Source of the DNA: a virus
Taxonomy: Duplodnaviria; Heunggongvirae; Uroviricota; Caudoviricetes
DNA: 9,587 nucleotides
Direction: 5' to 3' (one strand)
Virus record (IMG/VR): IMGVR_UViG_3300011888_000033
Location: 1-9,587 of that record
Shown here: one piece after another, positions 1-9,587 of the stretch
Numbering within the stretch: position 1 is the first letter of the stretch
How the letters are laid out: every line of letters starts with the position of its first letter
Translations under genes and position numbers: made by a program
Notes under the pieces: model-generated
The model's database searches: none
Told to the model about the DNA's origin: nothing
The model's input: the letters and a program-made list of their open reading frames with translations, nothing else

Positions 1-153
1 GCATGTTTTTGTGGTCAGGTTACGAATATATAGTTTTCGCTTTTTAATATTGTTTGCCGAGGCAATATATGTCCGGCCTTCATGAAGAACATAATCGCCA
101 GGAGTCACACACTGACGTGGTATTTCATCAGTTCCGAAGTGATGTGCAATCAT
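1..153 (-). CDS. kilR: KilR-like killing protein (FtsZ inhibitor of Rac prophage); 3' end lies beyond the window
   Basis: Reverse complement of 1..153 translates from the ATG at 153..151 as [51 protein letters not shown] and runs off the window edge; this matches my recollection of the Rac KilR N-terminus. An in-frame ATG four codons upstream (165..163) is an alternative start. Absent from the ORF track because it is partial. Confidence 0.7.
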
Positions 154-594
154 AATTATCTCCATTTTTACAAATGAACTTTGTTGATGCGGTGCCTGGT
201 GCCTCCAGGTGACTGCAACCAGTTAACAATTACAGTCGGCTTTCCCACCCAAACCAATAAGGACTAACATGACTTTTAACTGTGCCACGTGCGCTTAGCC
301 GCATTCACCGCATCACAAAATTCACTTTAAAAAGGGCGGACATCAGCCGAACTTCAAGAAAAAAACTGATGCCGCCAGGACTACACACAGCAATGTCGTT
401 ATTTACAACCGGAGGCGCACTCCCTCCATTTAAATTTAACAGACAAGACCGACTCTTTATGGATATCGGAAATGCGCCTTCGTGTTGTGCCCGGTTTTAT
501 TTCACCACCTCCGGGCTTCGGTGGTCTCGGCTATACCCCTACAGCGAGAGCTTGTGTTAACATTTCAATACCCTTACAGTTGAGAGTTATTGAT

Positions 595-1077
595 ATGTTG
601 GATGTATTTACTCCATTGTTGAAATTTTTTGCTAACGAGCCACTCGAAAGACTTATGTATACGATTATCATTTTTGGTCTCACTCTCTGGCTGATACCGA
701 AAGAGTTTACTGTCGCATTCAATGCTTATACTGAAATACCTTGGCTCTTTCAGATTATCGTTTTTGCCTTTTCTTTCGTGGTCGCCATTTCCTTCTCAAG
801 ATTGCGAGCACATATTCAAAAGCATTATTCATTACTACCAGAGCAACGAGTATTGCTTCGTTTATCTGAGAAAGAAATCGCTGTATTTAAAGATTTCCTT
901 AAAACAGGAAATCTTATTATCACTTCTCCTTGCCGTAACCCGGTTATGAAAAAATTAGAACGGAAGGGCATCATTCAACATCAGAGTGATAGCGCAAACT
1001 GTTCTTATTATCTCGTCACCGAAAAATACTCCNNNNNNNNNNCATTTTATGAAGTTATTCTGGAACAGCAGGAGTAG
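595..1077 (+). CDS. sieB: SieB-like superinfection exclusion membrane protein (160 codons, interrupted by an N-run)
   Basis: Part of track ORF 472..1077. The ATG at 595 is preceded by GAGAG about 8 nt upstream. The product has hydrophobic segments (IIIFGLTLWLIP, IIVFAFSFVVAISF) typical of a small inner-membrane protein. It is divergent from kilR, as in Rac. Stop TAG at 1075..1077. Contains 10 N at 1033..1042. Confidence 0.65.
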   Translation: MLDVFTPLLKFFANEPLERLMYTIIIFGLTLWLIPKEFTVAFNAYTEIPWLFQIIVFAFSFVVAISFSRLRAHIQKHYSLLPEQRVLLRLSEKEIAVFKDFLKTGNLIITSPCRNPVMKKLERKGIIQHQSDSANCSYYLVTEKYSXXXXFYEVILEQQE

Positions 1078-1089
1078 ACGTTTTAATCG

Positions 1090-1245
1090 TTAGCTTACTG
1101 TGTGCTTCTCCAACCATCGGCGCGCACCAGTTTCGGTTTTAAATGTTTTGCTTTTGGTATACGTCATGGCAGTGAACGTTCCATCCTGGTTGGGGAACAC
1201 GCCGCACACCAGGGATTCGTTGTTGCCGAGGTCGATTTTTTGCAT
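1090..1245 (-). CDS. ydaF: Small protein, 51 aa, YdaF-like
   Basis: Hand translation of the minus strand from ATG 1245..1243 to stop TAA 1092..1090 gives MQKIDLGNNESLVCGVFPNQDGTFTAMTYTKSKTFKTETGARRWLEKHTVS. Length and position (convergent with sieB) match Rac ydaF as I recall it. Not in the ORF track (below its length cutoff). Confidence 0.6.
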   Translation of the reverse strand: MQKIDLGNNESLVCGVFPNQDGTFTAMTYTKSKTFKTETGARRWLEKHTVS

Positions 1246-1255
1246 TTTGCGAATC

Positions 1256-1390
1256 TCACATCTTGTTGCTACGTATAGCGACTTCTGCCTGCCAGAGATC
1301 CCAGTCGTTGCTGCGTAAAGCCTGCACAGCCTGGTTGTAAGTGATACCGCAACAATCCATCAAATACTGAACTACTTCGTAATGCACCAT
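1256..1390 (-). CDS. ydaG: Small protein, 44 aa, YdaG-like
   Basis: Minus strand ATG 1390..1388 to stop 1258..1256 gives MVHYEVVQYLMDCCGITYNQAVQALRSNDWDLWQAEVAIRSNKM. AAGGGG lies about 9 nt upstream of the ATG. Its stop is 10 nt before the ydaF start. Length matches Rac ydaG (44 aa) as I recall it. Confidence 0.55.
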   Translation of the reverse strand: MVHYEVVQYLMDCCGITYNQAVQALRSNDWDLWQAEVAIRSNKM

Positions 1391-1555
1391 CTTATCTATC
1401 CCCTTAACGCCGGGTGGCGGAACTAACTGCTGCACTGCAAAATTTGAATCCCGCCGTCATGTTCATACGCCTCGGGCTGGCTACTTAACCCCTGACCACT
1501 GCCTGGTAACTCGAAGTATTGCCCGGCGTTCTGTGGGGCGGGGTGGGTTGGTAGG

Positions 1556-1606
1556 TATATAATGTACTTTGTGTTCATCATTGTAAAGTACTTTAAGTAC
1601 ATTTTA
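1556..1606. promoter_or_regulatory. OL-like operator/promoter region left of the repressor gene
   Basis: AT-rich block with a perfect TATAAT (1558..1563). Dyad elements: AATGTACTT (1561..1569), the perfect 10-bp palindrome AAAGTACTTT (1585..1594), and AAGTACATT (1595..1603), which is the reverse complement of the first. The same ATGTACT 7-mer recurs twice in the racR-ydaS intergenic region. Confidence 0.4.
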
Positions 1607-1677
1607 TGTATAAAAAAATGAGACGGGATAAAGTGAAGCACAAACCCGGAGGGGGACGCTACCGGATTTATGCTGGT

Positions 1678-2097
1678 TTAAGAGGCTTTTTGTTTTTTCT
1701 TTCGTGCTAACTCTTCGTAAATTGCATTGTACTTCTGTTTTTTCTCCTCAAGAGTTTTTAAAAGTTCATCTGTCTCACTGTCAGGGAGCTCGTCCAGAAG
1801 GTCAATGATGATTTTTTGTCTTGGATTTAACTCCTGATAGAAACGTATCTGTCCACTTTCTTCTGTATCCTCTCCCAAAAGATAGGTTGGTGTTGTTCCA
1901 ATGAGTGTTGCTAATTCCCTTAATTTCTCTCGGCGAGGAATTGTTTCACCATTAAACCATTTGCTAACCGCTTTTGGTGTTAATTTCATTCGACGGGCAA
2001 TTTCTGCCTGCCTTCCATGTTGTTCATAACCAGCGTTTTCACAGGCTAGCGCAAGCCTACTGGCGAACTCTTTACGCGCTTTATCTTCATGAACCAT
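1678..2097 (-). CDS. racR: Prophage immunity repressor, HTH (XRE-like), RacR-like
   Basis: Track ORF, 139 aa. HTH-like segment QAEIARRMKLTPKAVSKWFNGE. Divergently arranged with the Cro-like gene across a short operator-bearing spacer. Acidic/basic C-terminal tail. Confidence 0.7.
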   Translation of the reverse strand: MVHEDKARKEFASRLALACENAGYEQHGRQAEIARRMKLTPKAVSKWFNGETIPRREKLRELATLIGTTPTYLLGEDTEESGQIRFYQELNPRQKIIIDLLDELPDSETDELLKTLEEKKQKYNAIYEELARKKKQKAS

Positions 2098-2176
2098 AAG
2101 TTCAATGATATTCGCTCTTGAATGTACTGTCAGTTCTGTTATAGCATGTACTCAAAGTTCACATTGTGAGGGTGAT
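2098..2176. promoter_or_regulatory. OR-like divergent promoter/operator region between racR and ydaS
   Basis: 79-bp spacer between divergent starts. ATGTACT appears at 2122..2128 and 2146..2152 (direct repeat, 24 bp apart). Small dyads ACTGtCAGT (2126..2134) and CACAtTGTG (2160..2168). GAGGG RBS sits just before the ydaS ATG. Confidence 0.45.
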
Positions 2177-2431
2177 ATGAACCAGAAAACACTTGAAGAT
2201 GTAATCAAAACTGTTCGCGTTTCTGTTGTGGCCGACGTTTGTGGTGTCAGCCAAAGAGCAATCTACAAATGGATGGATAACGGAAAATTGCCTCGCACAG
2301 AATATACCGGCGAAACAAATTACGCTGAAAAAATCGCTCATGCATCAAACGGATTATTTTCTGCCGATGCAATTTTAACTATTGGCAGAAATAAAACTAC
2401 TACGAAAAAGCTGATGGGAGTTGATTCATGA
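2177..2431 (+). CDS. ydaS: Cro-like HTH regulator, YdaS-like (84 aa from the chosen start)
   Basis: In-frame part of track ORF 2105..2431. I prefer the ATG at 2177 (GAGGG RBS), because the ATG at 2105 would place the start 8 nt from the racR start with no room for a promoter. HTH-like VADVCGVSQRAIYKWMDNGKLP. Its stop overlaps the ydaT start (ATGA at 2428..2431). Confidence 0.6.
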   Translation: MNQKTLEDVIKTVRVSVVADVCGVSQRAIYKWMDNGKLPRTEYTGETNYAEKIAHASNGLFSADAILTIGRNKTTTKKLMGVDS

Positions 2432-2850
2432 AAATCAAGCATGAGCACATCGAATCAGTGTTGTTAGCCCTGGCAGCCGAGAAAGGGCAGGCGTGGGTCG
2501 CTAACGCAATTACTGAAGAATATCTGCGCCAGGGGGGCGGCGAATTGCCCCTGGTACCAGGCAAGGACTGGAACAATCAGCAGAATATCTATCATCGTTG
2601 GTTGAAAGGTGAAACGAATGCGCAAAGGGAAAAAATTCAGAAACTGATCCCTGCGGTTCTGGCAATTCTTCCTCGCGAGCTGCGTCACCGACTCTGCATC
2701 TTCGATACCCTGGAACGCCGTGCATTACTGGCGGCACAGGATGCACTGAGTACGGCAATTGATGCGCATGATGATGCAGTCCAGGCCGTTTACCGTAAAG
2801 CACATTTCAGCGGCGGCGGTTCTCCTAGCGATTCTGTCGTAGTGCATTGA
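2428..2850 (+). CDS. ydaT: YdaT-like protein (toxic partner of the RacR-YdaS-YdaT cassette)
   Basis: Track ORF, 140 aa, which matches the Rac YdaT length as I recall it. Translationally coupled to ydaS through the ATGA overlap. Synteny racR / ydaS-ydaT. Confidence 0.65.
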   Translation: MKIKHEHIESVLLALAAEKGQAWVANAITEEYLRQGGGELPLVPGKDWNNQQNIYHRWLKGETNAQREKIQKLIPAVLAILPRELRHRLCIFDTLERRALLAAQDALSTAIDAHDDAVQAVYRKAHFSGGGSPSDSVVVH

Positions 2851-2895
2851 TTGAAATTAATCGTACCGAACTGTTTTGTTCGGTATCAGTTAAAT

Positions 2896-2914
2896 GTAAC
2901 GCTGCGAGCGTTAC
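2896..2914. repeat. 19-bp dyad-symmetric repeat GTAACGCT-gcg-AGCGTTAC, copy 1 (non-coding, just upstream of the ydaU RBS)
   Basis: Perfect 8-bp inverted arms around a 3-bp spacer, followed by ACAA. Same motif at 3088..3106 and 3295..3313. Confidence 0.6.
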
Positions 2915-2927
2915 AAGGTGAAAACAA

Positions 2928-3716
2928 ATGGCTTCAAACTGGATAAAGCTCGAAGTTATTACGCCGGATAAGCCGGAAATATTCAGGCTTGCTGAGATTC
3001 TGAATATTGATCCAGATGCCGCATTAGGGAAAGTCATTCGCTTCTGGGCCTGGGCGGATCAACACATGATAGACGGTAACGCAGAGTGTAACGCTCGCGG
3101 CGTTACAAAAAGTGCAATAGATCGCATCACTTTTATGGCTGGTTTTGCTGATGCGTTAATTCAGGTTGGATGGCTGGTCGAAACTAATGGTGTGTTGTCG
3201 CTTCCTAACTTTGAGCGCCATAACGGGAAAAGCTCTAAAAAACGGGCGGTTACAAACGAGAGAGTAACAAAAATACGAGAACTGAAACGAAAAGGTAACG
3301 CTGCCAGCGTTACAAAAACGGATCAAAAAGCGTTACCAGAGGAAGAGAAAGAGGAAGATATAAATACTTATCTCCCCCTAAATCCCCCTCGCCAAAAACG
3401 AGCGTCTAAAAAATTCGAACCGGAGGCTATCGAGCTGCCTGACTGGTTGCCGGAAACACTCTGGCATGAGTGGGTTCAGTTCAGGCAGGCATTGCGAAAA
3501 CCGATTCGAACGGAGCAGGGCGCTAACGGGGCGATACGGGAGCTGGAAAAATTCCGCCAGCAGGGTTTTTCACCTGAGCAGGTGATTCGACACAGCATCG
3601 CCAACGAATACCAGGGCTTGTTCGCGCCGAAAGGTGTTCGACCTGAGACGTTACTCCGACAGGTTAACACCGTCTCGTTACCGGATAGTGCGATCCCGCC
3701 AGGCTTCAGGGGGTAA
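2928..3716 (+). CDS. ydaU: Replication initiation protein (O-like / YdaU-like)
   Basis: Track ORF, 262 aa. Sits immediately upstream of the DnaC-like loader gene. Has a central low-complexity basic/acidic linker (KSSKKRAVTNERVTKIRELKRKGNAASVTKTDQKALPEEEKEED). The dyad repeats lie inside and just before the gene, recalling lambda ori inside gene O. Confidence 0.65.
   Translation: MASNWIKLEVITPDKPEIFRLAEILNIDPDAALGKVIRFWAWADQHMIDGNAECNARGVTKSAIDRITFMAGFADALIQVGWLVETNGVLSLPNFERHNGKSSKKRAVTNERVTKIRELKRKGNAASVTKTDQKALPEEEKEEDINTYLPLNPPRQKRASKKFEPEAIELPDWLPETLWHEWVQFRQALRKPIRTEQGANGAIRELEKFRQQGFSPEQVIRHSIANEYQGLFAPKGVRPETLLRQVNTVSLPDSAIPPGFRG
3088..3106. repeat. 19-bp dyad repeat GTAACGCT-cgc-gGCGTTAC, copy 2 (inside ydaU)
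   Basis: 7 of 8 arm positions are symmetric. A left half-site GTAACGC lies at 3076..3082. Followed by ACAAAAAG. Confidence 0.55.
3295..3313. repeat. 19-bp dyad repeat GTAACGCT-gcc-AGCGTTAC, copy 3 (inside ydaU)
   Basis: Perfect 8-bp arms. Right half-sites GCGGTTAC (3246..3253) and AGCGTTAC (3329..3336) nearby. Followed by an A-rich stretch. Confidence 0.55.
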
Positions 3717-3722
3717 CTGACC

Positions 3723-4412
3723 ATGAAAAATATTGCGACAGGCGACGTTCTTGAACGTATCCGCAGACTGGCCCCGTCACATGTAACCGCGCCATTCAAG
3801 ACGGTAGCGGAGTGGCGCGAGTGGCAACTTTCCGAAGGCCAGAAACGTTGTGAGGAGATCAACCGTCAGAATCGTCAGTTGCGGGTGGAAAAAATTCTGA
3901 ATCGCTCTGGCATCCAGCCATTGCACCGCAAATGCTCGTTTTCGAATTACCAGGTGCAGAACGAAGGGCAGCGATACGCGTTGAGTCAGGCGAAATCCAT
4001 CGCTGATGAACTGATGACCGGGTGTACAAATTTTGCGTTCAGCGGAAAACCTGGTACCGGGAAGAACCACTTAGCGGCAGCTATCGGGAATCGCCTGCAC
4101 GCCAGCTATGACGACGGGCAGTCAGGCGAAAAATTTTTGCGGGAACTGTGCGAAGTGGATCTGCTGGTTCTTGATGAAATTGGCATTCAGCGCGAGACGA
4201 AAAACGAGCAGGTGGTACTGCACCAGATTGTTGATCGCCGGACAGCGTCGATGCGCAGCGTGGGGATGCTGACAAACCTGAACTATGAGGCCATGAAAAC
4301 ATTGCTTGGCGAGCGGATTATGGATCGCATGACCATGAACGGCGGGCGATGGGTGAATTTCAACTGGGAGAGCTGGCGTCCGAATGTCGTCCAGCCAGGA
4401 ATTGCGAAGTAA
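3723..4412 (+). CDS. ydaV: DnaC-like helicase loader (IstB/DnaC AAA+ ATPase), YdaV-like
   Basis: Track ORF, 229 aa. Walker [16 protein letters not shown], Walker [10 protein letters not shown], and a DnaC-like C-terminus ([22 protein letters not shown]...[10 protein letters not shown]). The ATG is 6 nt after the ydaU stop. Confidence 0.8.
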
Positions 4413-4434
4413 TTTTTACCGGGAGAAAAATTTA

Positions 4435-5184
4435 ATGGAGACTGTTTTTGACGCACTGAAAGCAATGGGAAAAGCCACATCCATAGAACTTGCTGCGCGA
4501 CTTGATATCAGTCGTGAAGCAGTGCTGAACGAACTATGGGAACTGAAAAAAGCTGGTTTCGTTGATAAAAGCGCGTACACCTGGCGTGTGGCTGATAACA
4601 ACGTTCAGCAGGAACAGCCAATGCAGGCAGAACTGCCGGAAGAAACCACCACGGCAACTGTAGTGAAAATCTCAGAGTGCGATTTAACCGCGACGATTGA
4701 ACAACGCGGACCACAAACGGCGGATGAACTGGCTACGCTGTTCGGTACAACACCCCGCAAAGTTGCTTCAACGCTGGCAATGGCAATCAGCAAAGGACGC
4801 CTGATTCGCGTAAACCAGAACGGTAAATTTCGTTACTGCATACCGGGCGATAATTTACCAGCAGAGCCGAAAGCTGCATCGGTAACGGAAACTGATTTTA
4901 AAGCCTTTCCTCAGCCAGCAGGTGTTGCGTTACCGGTACAGAAAGATGCAACACAGGAAGATATTAAAACAGAAACTGTAGCGGACATTGTGCAGTCGCT
5001 GCCATCGTTTACTGCAACGCGAGAAGATGATTTGATTTTGCCATCGCTGCATATGGCAAACCGCGAACTGCGTAGGGCGAAGAATCATGTCCAGAAGTGG
5101 GAGCGAGTCTGCGCCGCGCTGCGGGAGCTGAACAAGCACTGGGATATTGTCCATAAAGTTATTGCAGCAGGTATGGAGAAATAA
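4435..5184 (+). CDS. Conserved prophage protein, possibly DUF1627-like, with an N-terminal winged-helix-like segment; function unknown
   Basis: Track ORF 4384..5184. I prefer the ATG at 4435 (GGGAG about 9 nt upstream; 249 aa), because the ATG at 4384 lies inside ydaV. N-terminus [43 protein letters not shown] resembles a MarR/winged-helix fold. Family name is from memory, not searched. Confidence 0.5.
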
Positions 5185-5369
5185 ATACTCCTGATTATAT
5201 GAGTCATCCTGCTGCAGTTGTGACCAATATGATCGGTTGTGCAGAGTTCTTCAGATAGGGGTAATGAAAACTGCGGTGATTTGTATTCGCTGCAGTTAAT
5301 ATAAACTCGTCGAATTTTTTCATGAAATGTGATCTTAGTCATATTTATATCACGTCTATTTATCAGGTT

Positions 5370-5385
5370 CTGATGAAATCATCAG
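5370..5385. promoter_or_regulatory. Perfect 16-bp palindrome CTGATGA-AA-TCATCAG upstream of the 689-aa gene (candidate operator)
   Basis: 7+2+7 perfect dyad, 52 bp upstream of the ATG at 5438, within an AT-rich leader. ATCAGG also appears at 5362..5367 and 5380..5385. Confidence 0.3.
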
Positions 5386-5437
5386 GTGTTAAGATACTAT
5401 TTGTGCTGTCACCTCAATGGGTTAAAAAGGAATCTGG

Positions 5438-7507
5438 ATGAAAGGTAATATTCTTGGGGATATCCGAGCTGAACATGACGAAAAGATGTTGGAAGCTTCA
5501 TTTTGGCAAACAACTGATTATAAAGCTCTTCTCGAATCCTACGATCGATGCATCATTGTTGGCCGCAGAGGAACAGGAAAAAGTGCTCTGGTGCATATGC
5601 TTTCCAAACATTGGCATGCTAAGCCAAAAACCTATGTGATGACTATTAGTCCGGTTGAAGAACAAATTATTGGATTAAGGGATGTTATTTCTTTATTTGG
5701 TGAAAATTACTTACATATAAAAGCCGGTAGCAAGTTAGCATGGCGATATGCTATTTATATGGAGCTGCTTTCTGAGATCGCAAGTCATTACAAGATGAAA
5801 AACGATCTTGACTACAAAAGTGTAGAGTCGCATTTATTATCTTGGGGACCGAAGAGACAAAATATAAGTAGCAAAATAAGAAAAAAATTGAACGCTATTC
5901 TCGATGATAACAAAAATATAAAACCAGCTACAAGAATAGCCGAATTATCCGATAAATTTGAACTTGACTTATTGGAAGAGGTGATAGAAGAAGCAATTTC
6001 GAAGTCAAATAATCAATTTGTTATTTTTGCTGATAGGCTTGATGAAGGCTATACACCGGATAATCTTGGTGTTGCAATAGTTGATGGTTTCATTCAGGCT
6101 GTGATTGATATAAAACAAAATATGAATGAAAAGGTTATTGCCTTTGCATTTGTTAGAGATAATATTCATCGAGCCATATCAAAAATGGACCCTGATTTTA
6201 CTCGAAATATTGAAGGGCAAGTACTGAGATTACATTGGGATGAATATAACTTGTTTAATCTTGTATGCAATAGAATGAGGGTCGCTTTTAACTCAACCAT
6301 TGAGAACAACACGAGGGTGTGGAATGCTTACACCGCAAATGAATTACAGTCTAATACCGGTTTTAAAGAAACATTGAAACTGACTCTATATAGGCCAAGA
6401 GATATTTTGGTTTTGTTAAATAATGCATTCTTGCGAGCAAACACACATGATCGTAATCGTATTGTCATTGATGACATTCAAGCAACAGCGAATACTATTT
6501 CACAAAATAGACTCAATGATTTGTTAAAAGAATATGAGAATGTATTTCCTGCATTAGATATATTTACATCGCAATTTGCTAATAGCAAACCTTACTACAG
6601 TGTTTCTGAAGCGTCATCTAAGATACAATATGCCCTTGATCTCAATGGCGTTATTGACAAGATGAAAATGCAGGATTTACTTCTTTTTGAAGGGCCAATC
6701 CAGGTGATTCAACGACTTTACAGTGTTGGATTTATTGGGTTGTATAACCAGCAGTCATCTTCATATGTATTTTGCCATGACGGTAAGGAACCTGAAAAAG
6801 AATTTACACCAGATTCAAAATTGCTATTGCATCCATGCTACTGGCTAGCATTAAGTGTTCATGAATCAGAGATGACTCCCGATGCTGCTGATGATATTCA
6901 TGATGAATATGATATTGAGGTCAGCTCTGTTTCCGAAGAGCAGAGGAAACAACGAATCGGTTCGTTGCTCCAAGAACTACATAATATACCTGAAGGACCT
7001 GAAGGTGCTGTCGATTTTGAAGCATGGGCGCTCAAAACTATAAAGTTACTATTTGCTACGAATTTAACGAACATTGAGTTGCATCCCAATAAAAATGGGT
7101 TGCAGCAAAGAGATATTATAGCGACAAATATAGCTGACACTCCAGTTTGGAAGAGAATTCTGACAGATTATCAGACACGGCAAGTTGTTTTTGAAGTGAA
7201 AAACTATAAAACATTAGGTGCTGCAGAATATAGACAGGTAAATTCCTATTTGTTTAAAGACTATGGGCGGATAGCTTTTATCATAAATAGAGATCACACA
7301 GAGAATTTAGAAAAACATAAAGAGCTTACGTGGGTAAAAGAAATTTATGATAATCATAATAAATTAGTTGTGAAGTTACCCTCTAAGTTCCTTGAAAGGC
7401 ATCTGTCAAAAATGAGAAGCCCGCAAAAACATGACGAAGTTAATAAACAATTAGGTAAACTGCTCGATCAGTACATAAGGGTCTATTTAAATAATAAATG
7501 TAAGTAA
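5438..7507 (+). CDS. Candidate anti-phage defence protein: N-terminal P-loop ATPase fused to a C-terminal PD-(D/E)xK-like nuclease (689 aa); family not assigned
   Basis: Single long track ORF with AAGGA RBS 6 nt upstream. Visibly AT-rich relative to flanking prophage genes. Walker A GRRGTGKS (aa 42-49, nt 5561..5584). Walker B-like VIFADRLDE (nt 6020..6046). C-terminal motif DFE(528)AWALK ... RD(559)IIATN ... VVFE(586)VK(588)NYK (nt about 7013..7201) fits the E/D/ExK catalytic pattern of restriction-endonuclease-fold nucleases. Followed by an intrinsic terminator. Confidence 0.75.
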   Translation: MKGNILGDIRAEHDEKMLEASFWQTTDYKALLESYDRCIIVGRRGTGKSALVHMLSKHWHAKPKTYVMTISPVEEQIIGLRDVISLFGENYLHIKAGSKLAWRYAIYMELLSEIASHYKMKNDLDYKSVESHLLSWGPKRQNISSKIRKKLNAILDDNKNIKPATRIAELSDKFELDLLEEVIEEAISKSNNQFVIFADRLDEGYTPDNLGVAIVDGFIQAVIDIKQNMNEKVIAFAFVRDNIHRAISKMDPDFTRNIEGQVLRLHWDEYNLFNLVCNRMRVAFNSTIENNTRVWNAYTANELQSNTGFKETLKLTLYRPRDILVLLNNAFLRANTHDRNRIVIDDIQATANTISQNRLNDLLKEYENVFPALDIFTSQFANSKPYYSVSEASSKIQYALDLNGVIDKMKMQDLLLFEGPIQVIQRLYSVGFIGLYNQQSSSYVFCHDGKEPEKEFTPDSKLLLHPCYWLALSVHESEMTPDAADDIHDEYDIEVSSVSEEQRKQRIGSLLQELHNIPEGPEGAVDFEAWALKTIKLLFATNLTNIELHPNKNGLQQRDIIATNIADTPVWKRILTDYQTRQVVFEVKNYKTLGAAEYRQVNSYLFKDYGRIAFIINRDHTENLEKHKELTWVKEIYDNHNKLVVKLPSKFLERHLSKMRSPQKHDEVNKQLGKLLDQYIRVYLNNKCK

Positions 7508-7516
7508 TTCAATCTT

Positions 7517-7548
7517 TACCGAAAGATCATGTATCTTTCGGTATTTTT
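7517..7548 (+). terminator. Rho-independent terminator of the 689-aa gene
   Basis: Perfect 11-bp stem TACCGAAAGAT (7517..7527) / ATCTTTCGGTA (7533..7543) with 5-nt loop CATGT, then TTTTT (7544..7548). Begins 10 nt after the stop codon. Confidence 0.6.
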
Positions 7549-7639
7549 AAGTGAGAGTAATCAAAATCGTAATGAGAGCTATATAATAATCTGTATAGAT
7601 TAATTTACGAACGATTCAACATTTACCGTTATTATGACG

Positions 7640-7765
7640 GTGCAGGTTGCAAGGAAAGACCTCTGCGAGGTACGAATCCGAACCGACCAGACGGAGGTCG
7701 CTGTCTTCACAGCTTACGAACTTGGGGAGTAAGAGGACCAGCGGGGAGAAATCCCCGCAACCTCT
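7640..7765 (+). other. GC-rich hairpin-dense non-coding element inside the AT-rich island (candidate structured RNA); strand and function unknown
   Basis: No credible ORF. 7-bp stem with GAAA tetraloop (7741..7758). Hairpin GACCTC.../...GAGGTC (7658..7665 with 7692..7699). Hairpin CTTAC/GTAAG (7713..7717 with 7729..7733). Possible closing helix AGGTT/AACCT (7644..7648 with 7759..7763). A perfect TATAAT sits at 7582..7587 upstream. Confidence 0.25.
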
Positions 7766-8195
7766 GATGTATTATGCATCCTCAACGCAGCCACAGTTAA
7801 CCTGATTGGCGGGTTTACTTCATCTGTAAATATTTTTATAAAAATAATGCCCACGCACAGCATAAAACAAAAAGTATTACAGATAAAAAAGGAACGTAAT
7901 GTACAGATTTGTTGTTTTCCATATTTACTCACCTTAATATGATTAACCCTGATAGGGCTGTTATTTCAGCGGTTTTCAAATGAGATATTATGGTGATCTG
8001 ACAAATTTGCATAACATTAAAATTTAATTTGTTTAACCGCTTTTAATAATAAGCGTTGTTTGTATCCCAGCAATCTGTTGTTTGGTCTTTATTCCATTAA
8101 GGTGGGGGCTTTACACTGGAACCAGTTTATTTATACTTTATACGTCAGCCTGAACAACTGGCATCTGCTGCACTGCGCCATCGAGAGATTGAGAA

Positions 8196-8894
8196 ATGGC
8201 GCATATACAACTGGTCAAACAAACTTCTTCTGGTTTACTTCTCCCGGCGACGCCGGAGAGTTGCGATTTTCTGCATCAAATCAAAATAGGTGAGTGGATA
8301 CACGCAGACTTTAAGCGTGTGCGTAACTACGCATTCCACAAGCGTTTTTTCAAACTCCTGCAACTGGGATTCGATTACTGGACTCCGGTCGGTGGGGCGA
8401 TCACGCCTCGCGAACGAGAACTGCTGTCTGGTTTCGTTGATTACCTGTGCGAATCAGTTGGTCGGGAACACACGCCAGCCCTGAGTGATGCCGCAGAGCA
8501 ATACCTTAACACCGTTGCGACTCGTAGAACCCGGGATACGGCGTTGCTAAAGTCGTTTGAGGCTTTCCGCGAGTGGGTAACCATTCAGGCCGGATTTTAC
8601 ACCGAGCATATTTATCCGGACGGTAGCCGTGGGCGTCGGGCAAAATCCATCGCTTTTGCGAATATGGACGAAGTCGAGTTTCAGCAGGTTTATAAATCTG
8701 TACTGAATGTGCTGTGGAACTGGATTCTGTTCCGTAAATTCTCCTCTCAGGAGGAAGTTGAAGATGTGCCAGATCAGAATCCCTGGCTACTGCAATCACA
8801 ATCCCGAAACCTCTGTGCTGGCGCATTACAGGCTGGCGGGGACGTGCGGAACAGCGACAAAACCACACGATATGCAGGCGGCGATAGCCTGTAG
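8196..8894 (+). CDS. Conserved lambdoid nin-region protein (possibly DUF1367-like); function unknown
   Basis: Track ORF, 232 aa, normal GC content. Position upstream of a YbcO-like gene and a Q-like gene fits a nin-region gene. Its 3' end overlaps the next gene by 131 nt, so the true stop may be earlier or there is a frame problem. Confidence 0.45.
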   Translation: MAHIQLVKQTSSGLLLPATPESCDFLHQIKIGEWIHADFKRVRNYAFHKRFFKLLQLGFDYWTPVGGAITPRERELLSGFVDYLCESVGREHTPALSDAAEQYLNTVATRRTRDTALLKSFEAFREWVTIQAGFYTEHIYPDGSRGRRAKSIAFANMDEVEFQQVYKSVLNVLWNWILFRKFSSQEEVEDVPDQNPWLLQSQSRNLCAGALQAGGDVRNSDKTTRYAGGDSL

Positions 8895-9021
8895 CTCATG
8901 CCACGATCTAATCGACGGGCGGGTAAAAACCAGCGATTACACCAAAGAAGAATTGCGCCTGATGCATGCTGAAGGGGTTTTTCGCACACAAGAAATCTGG
9001 AGAAAGAAAGGTCATTTATGA
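8764..9021 (+). CDS. YbcO-like small Cys-rich putative nuclease (DUF1364-like)
   Basis: Part of track ORF 8707..9021. AGGAGG lies 8 nt before the ATG at 8764. MCQIRIPGYCNHNPETSVLAHYRLAGTCGTATKPHDMQAAIACSSCHDLIDGR resembles DLP12 YbcO as I recall it (CQVRIPGVCNGNPETSVLAH...TKP...IACSACHD). Alternative start at ATG 8707. Stop overlaps the next gene (ATGA at 9018..9021). Confidence 0.55.
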   Translation: MCQIRIPGYCNHNPETSVLAHYRLAGTCGTATKPHDMQAAIACSSCHDLIDGRVKTSDYTKEELRLMHAEGVFRTQEIWRKKGHL

Positions 9022-9560
9022 TTTACCCAACGAATACAGGAAAAAGCGGAGAACACCTTCGCCTCACCACGCTGGAAAGTGTCTGGATTCAGGGAAAACT
9101 ACGTATGTGGGGGCGCTGGTCGTATATTGGCGGTGGCAGGTCAGGGAATATGTTCAATCAGTTGTTGGCATCCAAAAAACTGACGAAAACAGCCATTAAT
9201 GAAGCCCTGCGCAGAATGAAAAAAGCGGGAATAGAGAAAGCTGAGCTGGAAGCGTTTTTGCGAGAGATGATCAACGGCAAGCAAAAGAGCTGGCTGGCGC
9301 ATTGTACTGATGCAGAGGCGTTATGTATTGATCGAGTCATAAGTGAGGTGCTGGCAGAGCATCCAGGATTGATTTGCATTCTCCGGCAACGCTATGAAGG
9401 GCGGGGGATGGCTAAGCGCAAAATGGCTGAATTGCTAAATGATGCACACCCAGAGTGGTGTTTTAGCACATGCGAAAAACGGATTGCTAATTGGTTAGCT
9501 GTTGCTGAGTATGCCCTATATATTCCCATGCGTGAATCATTTGCTGAGAAAATGGCTTGA
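9018..9560 (+). CDS. Putative late-gene antiterminator Q-like protein
   Basis: Track ORF, 180 aa, translationally coupled to the YbcO-like gene. It is the last gene before the window end, where a lambdoid Q would sit. RMWGRWSY resembles the RWGAW motif near the N-terminus of Q21/QuuD-type antiterminators. C-terminus is HTH-like. Assignment is by position and weak motif only. Confidence 0.45.
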   Translation: MIYPTNTGKSGEHLRLTTLESVWIQGKLRMWGRWSYIGGGRSGNMFNQLLASKKLTKTAINEALRRMKKAGIEKAELEAFLREMINGKQKSWLAHCTDAEALCIDRVISEVLAEHPGLICILRQRYEGRGMAKRKMAELLNDAHPEWCFSTCEKRIANWLAVAEYALYIPMRESFAEKMA

Positions 9561-9587
9561 TTTCTTACGTATAAACTGCTTCAATTT

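Follow-up and report, generated by a model that had tools for sequence, protein, structure and literature searches.

Putative HK022-type operators on both sides of the immunity repressor gene in a Rac-like prophage

Do the short repeats found on both sides of a phage repressor gene represent left and right operators (OL and OR), as they do in the lambda switch? This question was raised by a stretch of Caudoviricetes DNA of 9,587 nucleotides (IMG/VR record IMGVR_UViG_3300011888_000033, positions 1 to 9,587; hereafter the window). The initial annotation had described ATGTACT repeats around a repressor gene labelled racR, had read them as operators of the OL/OR type, and had supposed that the repressor also controls a leftward promoter. 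Both proposals were supported by our analysis, since the sites and the pL and pR boxes match the positions of those of phage HK022. Thus, the repressor gene is flanked left and right by the same operator sequence, each copy of which has its homologue in HK022 oL or oR, and the left cluster is the positional homologue of HK022 oL with its pL boxes. Very probably, the window derives from a lambdoid, Rac-like prophage with an HK022-type immunity module, whose repressor would bind five sites.

Exact copies of ATGTACT, taking both strands, were located at 1562-1568 (+), 1596-1602 (-), 2122-2128 (+), 2146-2152 (+) and 7470-7476 (-). The enrichment check suggested in the initial annotation was run over the window, and it gave five copies compared with 1.04 expected, a number that none of 200 dinucleotide-preserving shuffles reached. 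The repeats are therefore real, but their count, which had been given as three copies plus a near-copy, was too low: the two short regions beside the repressor gene hold four exact copies, in addition to the near-copy AAGTACT at 1586-1593. The further claim that all copies are confined to these regions holds for those four, whereas the fifth (7470-7476) falls inside the open reading frame (ORF) of a 689-amino-acid (aa) ATPase. The two AT-rich regions have G+C contents of 23% and 37%; when their cores (1556-1625 and 2098-2176) were shuffled locally (n = 200,000), four copies were never obtained and three copies only once. With one mismatch allowed, the word was barely enriched (35 occurrences versus 23.8 expected), so the 7-mer on its own describes the sites poorly.

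An unbiased repeat finder paired 1556-1577 with 2140-2161, 1561-1576 with 2121-2136, and 1560-1578 with 1584-1602, the last two segments being 24 bp apart. The real repeat unit is a 15-bp inverted repeat, TGWAC-N5-GTWCA, of which ATGTACT represents one half-site (TGTAC) plus flanking bases. Sequences matching TGWACNNNNNGTWCA with at most one mismatch occurred six times in the window compared with 0.89 expected (0 of 200 shuffles), and five of the six lie in the two regulatory regions. The left pair is formed by OL1 (TGTACTTTGTGTTCA, 1563-1577, no mismatches), which overlaps the -10 box of the leftward promoter and is the homologue of HK022 oL 2201-2215 (TGTACTTAAAGTTCA), and, 24 bp away, OL2 (AGTACTTTAAGTACA, 1587-1601, one mismatch), the homologue of HK022 oL 2225-2239 (AGTACCAATAGTACA), which abuts the -35 box of that promoter and overlaps its first base. 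On the right, OR3 (TGAACCATAAGTTCA, 2090-2104, no mismatches) spans the start codon of the repressor gene (2097-2095) together with the expected start of its promoter (PRM), and is identical to HK022 OR3 and OR1 (3000-3014 and 3057-3071). OR2 (TGTACTGTCAGTTCT, 2123-2137, one mismatch) is placed 33 bp from OR3, between the -35 and -10 boxes of the rightward promoter (PR) and over the PRM -35, and corresponds to HK022 oR 3033-3047 (TGTACTATCAGTTCC). OR1 (TGTACTCAAAGTTCA, 2147-2161, no mismatches), 24 bp from OR2, covers the expected PR start and corresponds to HK022 oR 3057-3071. OR3 had escaped the initial annotation because its half-sites are TGAAC and contain no ATGTACT. The sixth match (GGAACGTAATGTACA, 7891-7905, one mismatch) and the ATGTACT at 7470-7476 were taken as chance occurrences because neither has a partner site.

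The 10-bp palindrome AAAGTACTTT (1585-1594) and the TATAAT on the plus strand (1558-1563) are both present as first described. The palindrome was rejected as an operator, its right arm not being conserved in HK022 (AAAGTACCAA); it is an incidental overlap of the pL -35 box with the left half of OL2. The plus-strand TATAAT was likewise discarded as a -10 box: it lacks an upstream -35, a transcript started from it would run antisense into the repressor gene, and HK022 has the homologous pL box on the opposite strand; on that strand of the window, the -10 of the leftward promoter overlaps the TATAAT by five bases. A separate repeat, ATGAACCATAA (2089-2099), which comprises the left half of OR3 over the repressor start on the opposite strand, recurs as ATGAACCAGAA at the start codon of cro (2177-2187), probably by coincidence.

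A search of phage genomes with 1550-2176 gave full-length matches to Rac-like phage records and to phage Tritos, together with ∼72% identity to HK022 and relatives annotating oR1-3, which covered the intergenic region and the half of the repressor gene that encodes the N terminus. The HK022 immunity region (X16093; Oberto et al. 1989) shares the operator consensus TGWAC-N5-GTWCA with the window, and its record annotates oL (two sites), the pL -10 and -35 boxes, oR (three sites), and the pR -35 and -10 boxes at homologous positions; operators and promoters are likewise annotated in the HK75 record. The DNA homology to HK022 is made up of two blocks, 1558-1616 (OL and the leftward promoter, PL) and 1937-2347 (N-terminal domain, OR and cro), with unrelated sequence between them. 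Since only these two blocks are homologous, both operator sets go with the DNA-binding domain.

The arrangement of the sites is also shared. HK022 has as many OR sites, with identical OR and OL spacing, and its sites cover the pL and pR boxes in the same way. The distance of 24 bp in the OL pair and those of 33 and 24 bp in the OR triplet are the same in HK022, HK75, Tritos and ETEC1730, in Citrobacter phage Omnitron and Klebsiella phage 2 LV-2017, and also in 10 further genomes. To measure conservation, loci retrieved with the motif were excluded, as statistics on them would be circular, and alignments anchored on gene homology were used instead (A2 for OL and A3 for OR). In A2, 20 of 20 half-site columns were invariant, compared with 16 of 76 other columns (Fisher p = 3e-11); in A3, the corresponding values were 25 of 30 and 15 of 73 (Fisher p = 4e-9). 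The central N5 spacers varied freely in both, and the half-sites remained unchanged while spacers and flanks differed, even in copies that are ∼87% identical.

The coupling of OL to OR was subjected to an independent test by scanning one genome per species with the pattern of the OL doublet alone. This rendered 14 loci, 10 of which had an OR triplet with 33/24-bp spacing 527 to 2,161 bp to the right, whatever the sequence in between. The exact OL1/OL2 doublet also appeared outside the Enterobacterales, in Pseudomonas (L011 and L013), a Rheinheimera metagenome-assembled genome (MAG; L015) and a Bacillota MAG (L021); no OR triplet was present in the available flank of these four loci. In L013, a terminator-like hairpin and an insertion sequence transposase ORF come after the doublet.

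A consensus promoter scan of 1400-2300 returned exactly two sites, PL and PRM, both leftward. Given that shuffled sequences yielded a similar number (1.6 ± 1.3), the scan alone would not be enough for the promoter assignments, which rely on positional homology. The PL-like promoter (1559-1587, minus strand) consists of a -35 TTTACA (1587 to 1582), a 17-bp spacer and a -10 CATTAT (1564 to 1559), with 9 of 12 consensus matches. Its boxes coincide with the annotated pL -35 (TGTAAA on the plus strand) and -10 of HK022, and both TGTAAA and AT.ATG are invariant in alignment A2. Transcription would be expected to start near 1552 and to proceed towards ydaG, ydaF and kilR. The PRM-like promoter (2105-2133, minus strand), with 10 of 12 matches, comprises a -35 CTGACA (2133 to 2128), 17 bp and a -10 TATCAT (2110 to 2105), a geometry retained in HK022 as CTGATA-17-TATAGT-7 nucleotides (nt)-ATG. 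It is located 7 to 8 nt upstream of the repressor ATG, with an expected start at or beside that codon and no Shine-Dalgarno sequence, which suggests a leaderless repressor mRNA, as described for paaR2 (PMC8630535) and racR (PMC9638921). The PR-like promoter (2118-2145, plus strand) is proposed by homology: its -35 TTGAAT (2118-2123) and -10 TATAGC (2140-2145), separated by 16 bp and with a TG at 2137-2138, align with the annotated HK022 pR -35 TTGACT and -10 CATAAT.

The repressor gene (1678-2097, minus strand; protein WP_000233319.1) encodes 139 aa, with an HK022 cI-like helix-turn-helix (HTH) N-terminal domain (approximately aa 1 to 75; Pfam HTH_3) and an unrelated, all-helical C-terminal domain. 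BLASTP gave 46% identity to HK022 cI over the first 99 aa (E = 9e-32), and no homology to HK022 cI was found past aa ∼100 or in the DNA at 1617-1936. The stretch TPKAVSKWFNGE of the HTH aligns with TPKAISKWFNGE of HK022 cI, differing at 1 of 12 residues; judged from its position it is likely the recognition helix, and it is invariant across the homologues in alignments A4 and A5, relatives of the S24 type included. The Cro-like protein (84 aa; 2177-2431, plus strand; a RefSeq coding sequence in the near-identical strain H10) shows 62% identity to HK022 Cro over 73 aa (E = 1e-34).

The C-terminal part of the repressor (1678-1875, residues ∼75 to 139) is a short all-helical module placed where relatives with the same DNA-binding domain carry S24. 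No S24 peptidase domain (PF00717) was detected in it with Pfam, which makes RecA-mediated self-cleavage and SOS induction unlikely. Homologues sharing the N-terminal domain exist either as short forms like this one or as S24 (PF00717) forms of 235 to 240 aa; HK022 cI belongs to the latter, with an S24/LexA-like domain and 235 aa when the X16093 coding sequence is translated (208 aa in the note of the record). In the AlphaFold2 model (mean predicted local distance difference test score, 83.7), a flexible linker connects an HTH domain of five helices with three further helices at 81-138. A sequence search of the PDB recovered only the HTH domain of P22 C2 (E = 0.006). The fold search gave HTH matches and weak, high root-mean-square-deviation full-length matches to SinR, 5d4z (a Salmonella phage repressor) and 9iaq (an arbitrium-system repressor), which were too weak to assign the C-terminal domain. 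Judging by these comparisons, the C-terminal region is a natural domain swap, the one mildly unusual feature of this locus.

In the mechanism that we propose, the repressor, presumably as a dimer, would bind the five TGWAC-N5-GTWCA sites through its HK022 cI-like HTH domain. Dimers at OL1 and OL2 would block PL, covering its -10 and abutting its -35, and would thus keep the early left operon (the ydaG-like gene, ydaF, kilR, ydaE, racC, recE and recT) switched off. Occupancy of OR1 and OR2 would cover the PR start and spacer and block transcription of cro-ydaT and the replication genes, while OR3, lying over the start of the leaderless repressor transcript, would mediate negative autoregulation and limit repressor synthesis. 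By analogy with lambda, the Cro-like protein probably competes for the same sites. Repressor binding at the five sites, and with it the order of occupancy, cooperativity and OL-OR looping, is something we infer. According to PMC8053113, which cites Carlson & Little 1993, the HK022 repressor binds its sites and represses pL and pR; HK022 CI is also reported to bind adjacent sites of OL and OR cooperatively, with OL-OR looping (PMC8053113). Since the C-terminal domains of the two repressors are unrelated, neither cooperativity nor looping can be extrapolated from HK022 CI to the repressor of the window.

The control logic is that of a textbook lambdoid switch, and what is new is this member of the HK022-type cassettes in a Rac-type prophage. 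As in lambda, operator clusters of a single consensus flank the repressor gene over divergent early promoters, there are three OR sites with one over the promoter of the repressor itself, and the repressor mRNA is leaderless, in the window probably so. However, the lambda operators show no sequence similarity to these sites and measure 17 bp instead of 15, lambda has three OL sites and the window two detectable ones, and the lambda repressor has the RecA-cleavable domain that this one lacks. Lambda OR2 abuts the PRM -35, whereas OR2 of the window overlaps it, so PRM activation cannot be assumed here. With respect to HK022, the features of the type found in the window are the HTH domain, the 15-bp operators, the number and spacing of OL and OR sites, and a Cro gene with pR boxes; the S24 C-terminal domain, OL3 and OFR, all present in HK022, were not found. 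The starts of OL1 and OR1 are 584 bp apart, compared with 856 bp in HK022, and the flanks are of Rac type (ydaG/kilR/recET to the left and ydaT/ydaU to the right), in contrast to nun/put/cII in HK022.

Several observations weigh against this interpretation. No equivalent of OL3 was detected (no site with up to three mismatches starts in 1601-1700), nor was one of OFR (no site with up to one mismatch downstream of cro), and a search downstream of the repressor gene yielded no intrinsic terminator. PR has a poor -10, scores low against the consensus and was missed by the scan, whose two matches did not exceed those of the shuffles. The C-terminal domain is unrelated to that of HK022 CI, and the prophage may be defective in some hosts.

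Some of these points would be explained if the sites were relics inherited from an HK022-type ancestor and no longer functional, for instance because the swapped repressor does not bind OL or because PL is dead. Rac-like prophages are often cryptic, and the replaced C-terminal domain, the missing OL3 and OFR and the weak PR -10 agree with such decay. Nevertheless, we regard it as improbable: the repressor and cro ORFs are intact, TPKAVSKWFNGE does not vary in the aligned homologues, half-sites are retained where spacers and flanks have drifted even in ∼87% identical copies, and the whole cassette is kept in 1,047 genomes as well as in deposited phage genomes. Another possibility is that true repressor operators exist on the right side alone, and that the left cluster serves mostly the Cro-like protein or some other factor, or is simply a promoter element. 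Cro shares operators with the repressor in lambdoid phages, and the overlap of the OL sites with promoter hexamers could account for part of their conservation. However, the consensus common to OL and OR extends outside the hexamers, to the right half of OL1 and to OL2 beyond its first base, the OL doublet and the OR triplet co-occur across genera, and the HK022 repressor is reported to bind both OL and OR (PMC8053113), all of which leaves this option very little probability.

The two remaining explanations were rejected as having next to no probability. That an AT-rich word simply recurred by chance in AT-rich DNA between genes would fit the base composition of the regions and the poor enrichment of the degenerate 7-mer, but this is refuted by the composition-matched local shuffles, none of which reached four copies, by the excess of the 15-mer and by the conservation of the sites one by one across genera. 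The view that these are operators of K-12 RacR flanking racR has in its favor the position of the gene, which in this Rac-like prophage stands between ydaG and ydaT, in the place of racR; protein comparison and the missing RacR operator motif rule it out. The repressor shows only 36% identity to K-12 RacR over 33 aa (E = 1e-4), YdaS is no relative of the Cro-like protein (33% over 18 aa, E = 0.028), and the gene sits in an exchanged cassette, so the label racR given to it initially must be abandoned. As the gene is not racR, an electrophoretic mobility shift assay with K-12 RacR would be the wrong experiment. The published RacR operator has the core TAGGC-n3-GCCTA, in fuller form (T/A)TAGGC-n3-GCCTA(T/A) (PMC9638921); the window contains no good match to it (one with two mismatches, versus 2.3 expected), and no TGWAC-N5-GTWCA sites exist near K-12 racR. 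A lambdoid prophage with HK022-type immunity thus remains the best explanation.

The K-12 RacR/YdaS module (PMC5700373 and PMC9638921) occupies the same slot with the same junctions, in the PL start region on the left and at the start of ydaT on the right. RacR is likewise short and without S24, and racR is likewise flanked by two operator sets, but the repressor and cro genes are not homologous to those of the window and the operator sequence is different. In 8 kb of K-12 Rac, all six matches to the RacR core lie beside racR, four of them within the racR-ydaS intergenic region or at its edge. The other two, TAGGTAATGCCTA (L002:3631-3643) and TAGGCTATGCCTA (L002:3656-3668), are 25 bp apart and bracket, in the interval that separates ydaG from the 3' end of racR, a leftward near-consensus promoter (TTGACA-17-TATAGT); in MG1655, these repeats and promoter (L002 3627-3668) correspond to NC_000913.3 positions ∼1419626-1419667. 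By these signals, K-12 Rac appears to have an OL of its own. The paper describing the RacR operator (PMC9638921) is confined to the racR-ydaS intergenic region and never mentions ydaG. Silencing of racR is reported to derepress ydaG, kilR, ydaE, racC, recE and recT (2026 preprint, bioRxiv 10.64898/2026.09.06.749655).

A further comparison is offered by the PaaR2/YdaS/YdaT module of CP-933P from E. coli O157:H7 (PMC8630535), also a lambdoid cryptic prophage with ydaS-ydaT. Experiments have placed its PL/OL analogues, downstream of the repressor operon, under the control of the repressor and the Cro analogue (PMC8630535). Its operators differ, being GTTTAGTAA-type repeats, and its repressor gene is cotranscribed with the paaA2-parE2 toxin-antitoxin pair, which is absent from the window. 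In view of the K-12 racR silencing and of the CP-933P PL/OL, a leftward early operon under the immunity repressor is the rule in this group.

Both motif clusters are inside a heteroimmune immunity cassette (1554-2421) that replaces K-12 racR-ydaS and their operators. In blastn comparisons with K-12 Rac, window positions 3-1553 showed 99% identity and ydaT, from 2422 onwards (2422-2848), 92%, while for 1554-2421 no K-12 Rac homology was found by blastn or pairwise alignment; in the latter, divergence begins directly after GGGGTGGGT. The intact cassette was present in 1,047 of 5,426 complete E. coli genomes (∼19%) and also in deposited phage genomes; in phage Tritos, it adjoins a different left arm of the dicB/DicF type. 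The cassette thus moves as one unit. We found no description of this particular cassette in the literature.

The result is a map of the switch of a Rac-like prophage, with five operators, three promoters and the boundaries of the cassette. It also provides a clear example of lambdoid mosaicism: the DNA-binding domain is passed on together with its operators, while exchange has affected the C-terminal domain of the repressor and both prophage arms. On a more tentative level, which we would not favor over its negation, the locus may encode a domain-swapped repressor that combines a DNA-binding domain of HK022 specificity with a short helical C terminus devoid of the RecA-cleavage module. Were this true, and HK022-type operators bound, those 1,047 of 5,426 E. 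coli genomes would carry an SOS-insensitive repressor, and cross-immunity against phages of HK022 immunity would follow. Pairwise cooperativity, and perhaps OL-OR looping over ∼0.5 kb, would need a different oligomerization domain, and control by an antirepressor, as in SinR or SPC32H Rep, would be a possibility.

As a whole, the window was identified by nucleotide search as a Rac-like prophage, 99.8% identical to E. coli H10 and other strains, and at least 80% of it was covered in only 39 genomes. The RefSeq annotation of H10 gives the order kilR, sieB, ydaF, a ydaG-like ORF, the 139-aa HTH protein (1678-2097, minus strand), the 84-aa HTH protein (2177-2431, plus strand), ydaT and then replication genes.

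Upstream of the ydaG-like ORF, an untranslated PL leader of ∼150 nt (1391-1553, minus strand) is conserved. It is near-invariant in K-12 Rac, phage Tritos and ETEC1730, despite the different immunity cassette in K-12 and the different first downstream gene in Tritos and ETEC1730, and the homology stops where the ribosome-binding site of the first gene is reached. The indel lengths (3, 3 and 1 nt) argue that the leader is noncoding. Its RNA fold was not convincing (z = -1.83) and an Rfam scan of the window, leader included, gave no matches; the leader could be an antitermination or processing element.

Beyond window position 4884, no K-12 Rac homology was found by blastn. In this part, the H10 annotation places the 689-aa ORF mentioned above (5438-7507), described as a "P-loop ATPase, Sll1717 family", followed by a partial hok/gef pseudogene; the ATPase ORF may be accessory or defence cargo.

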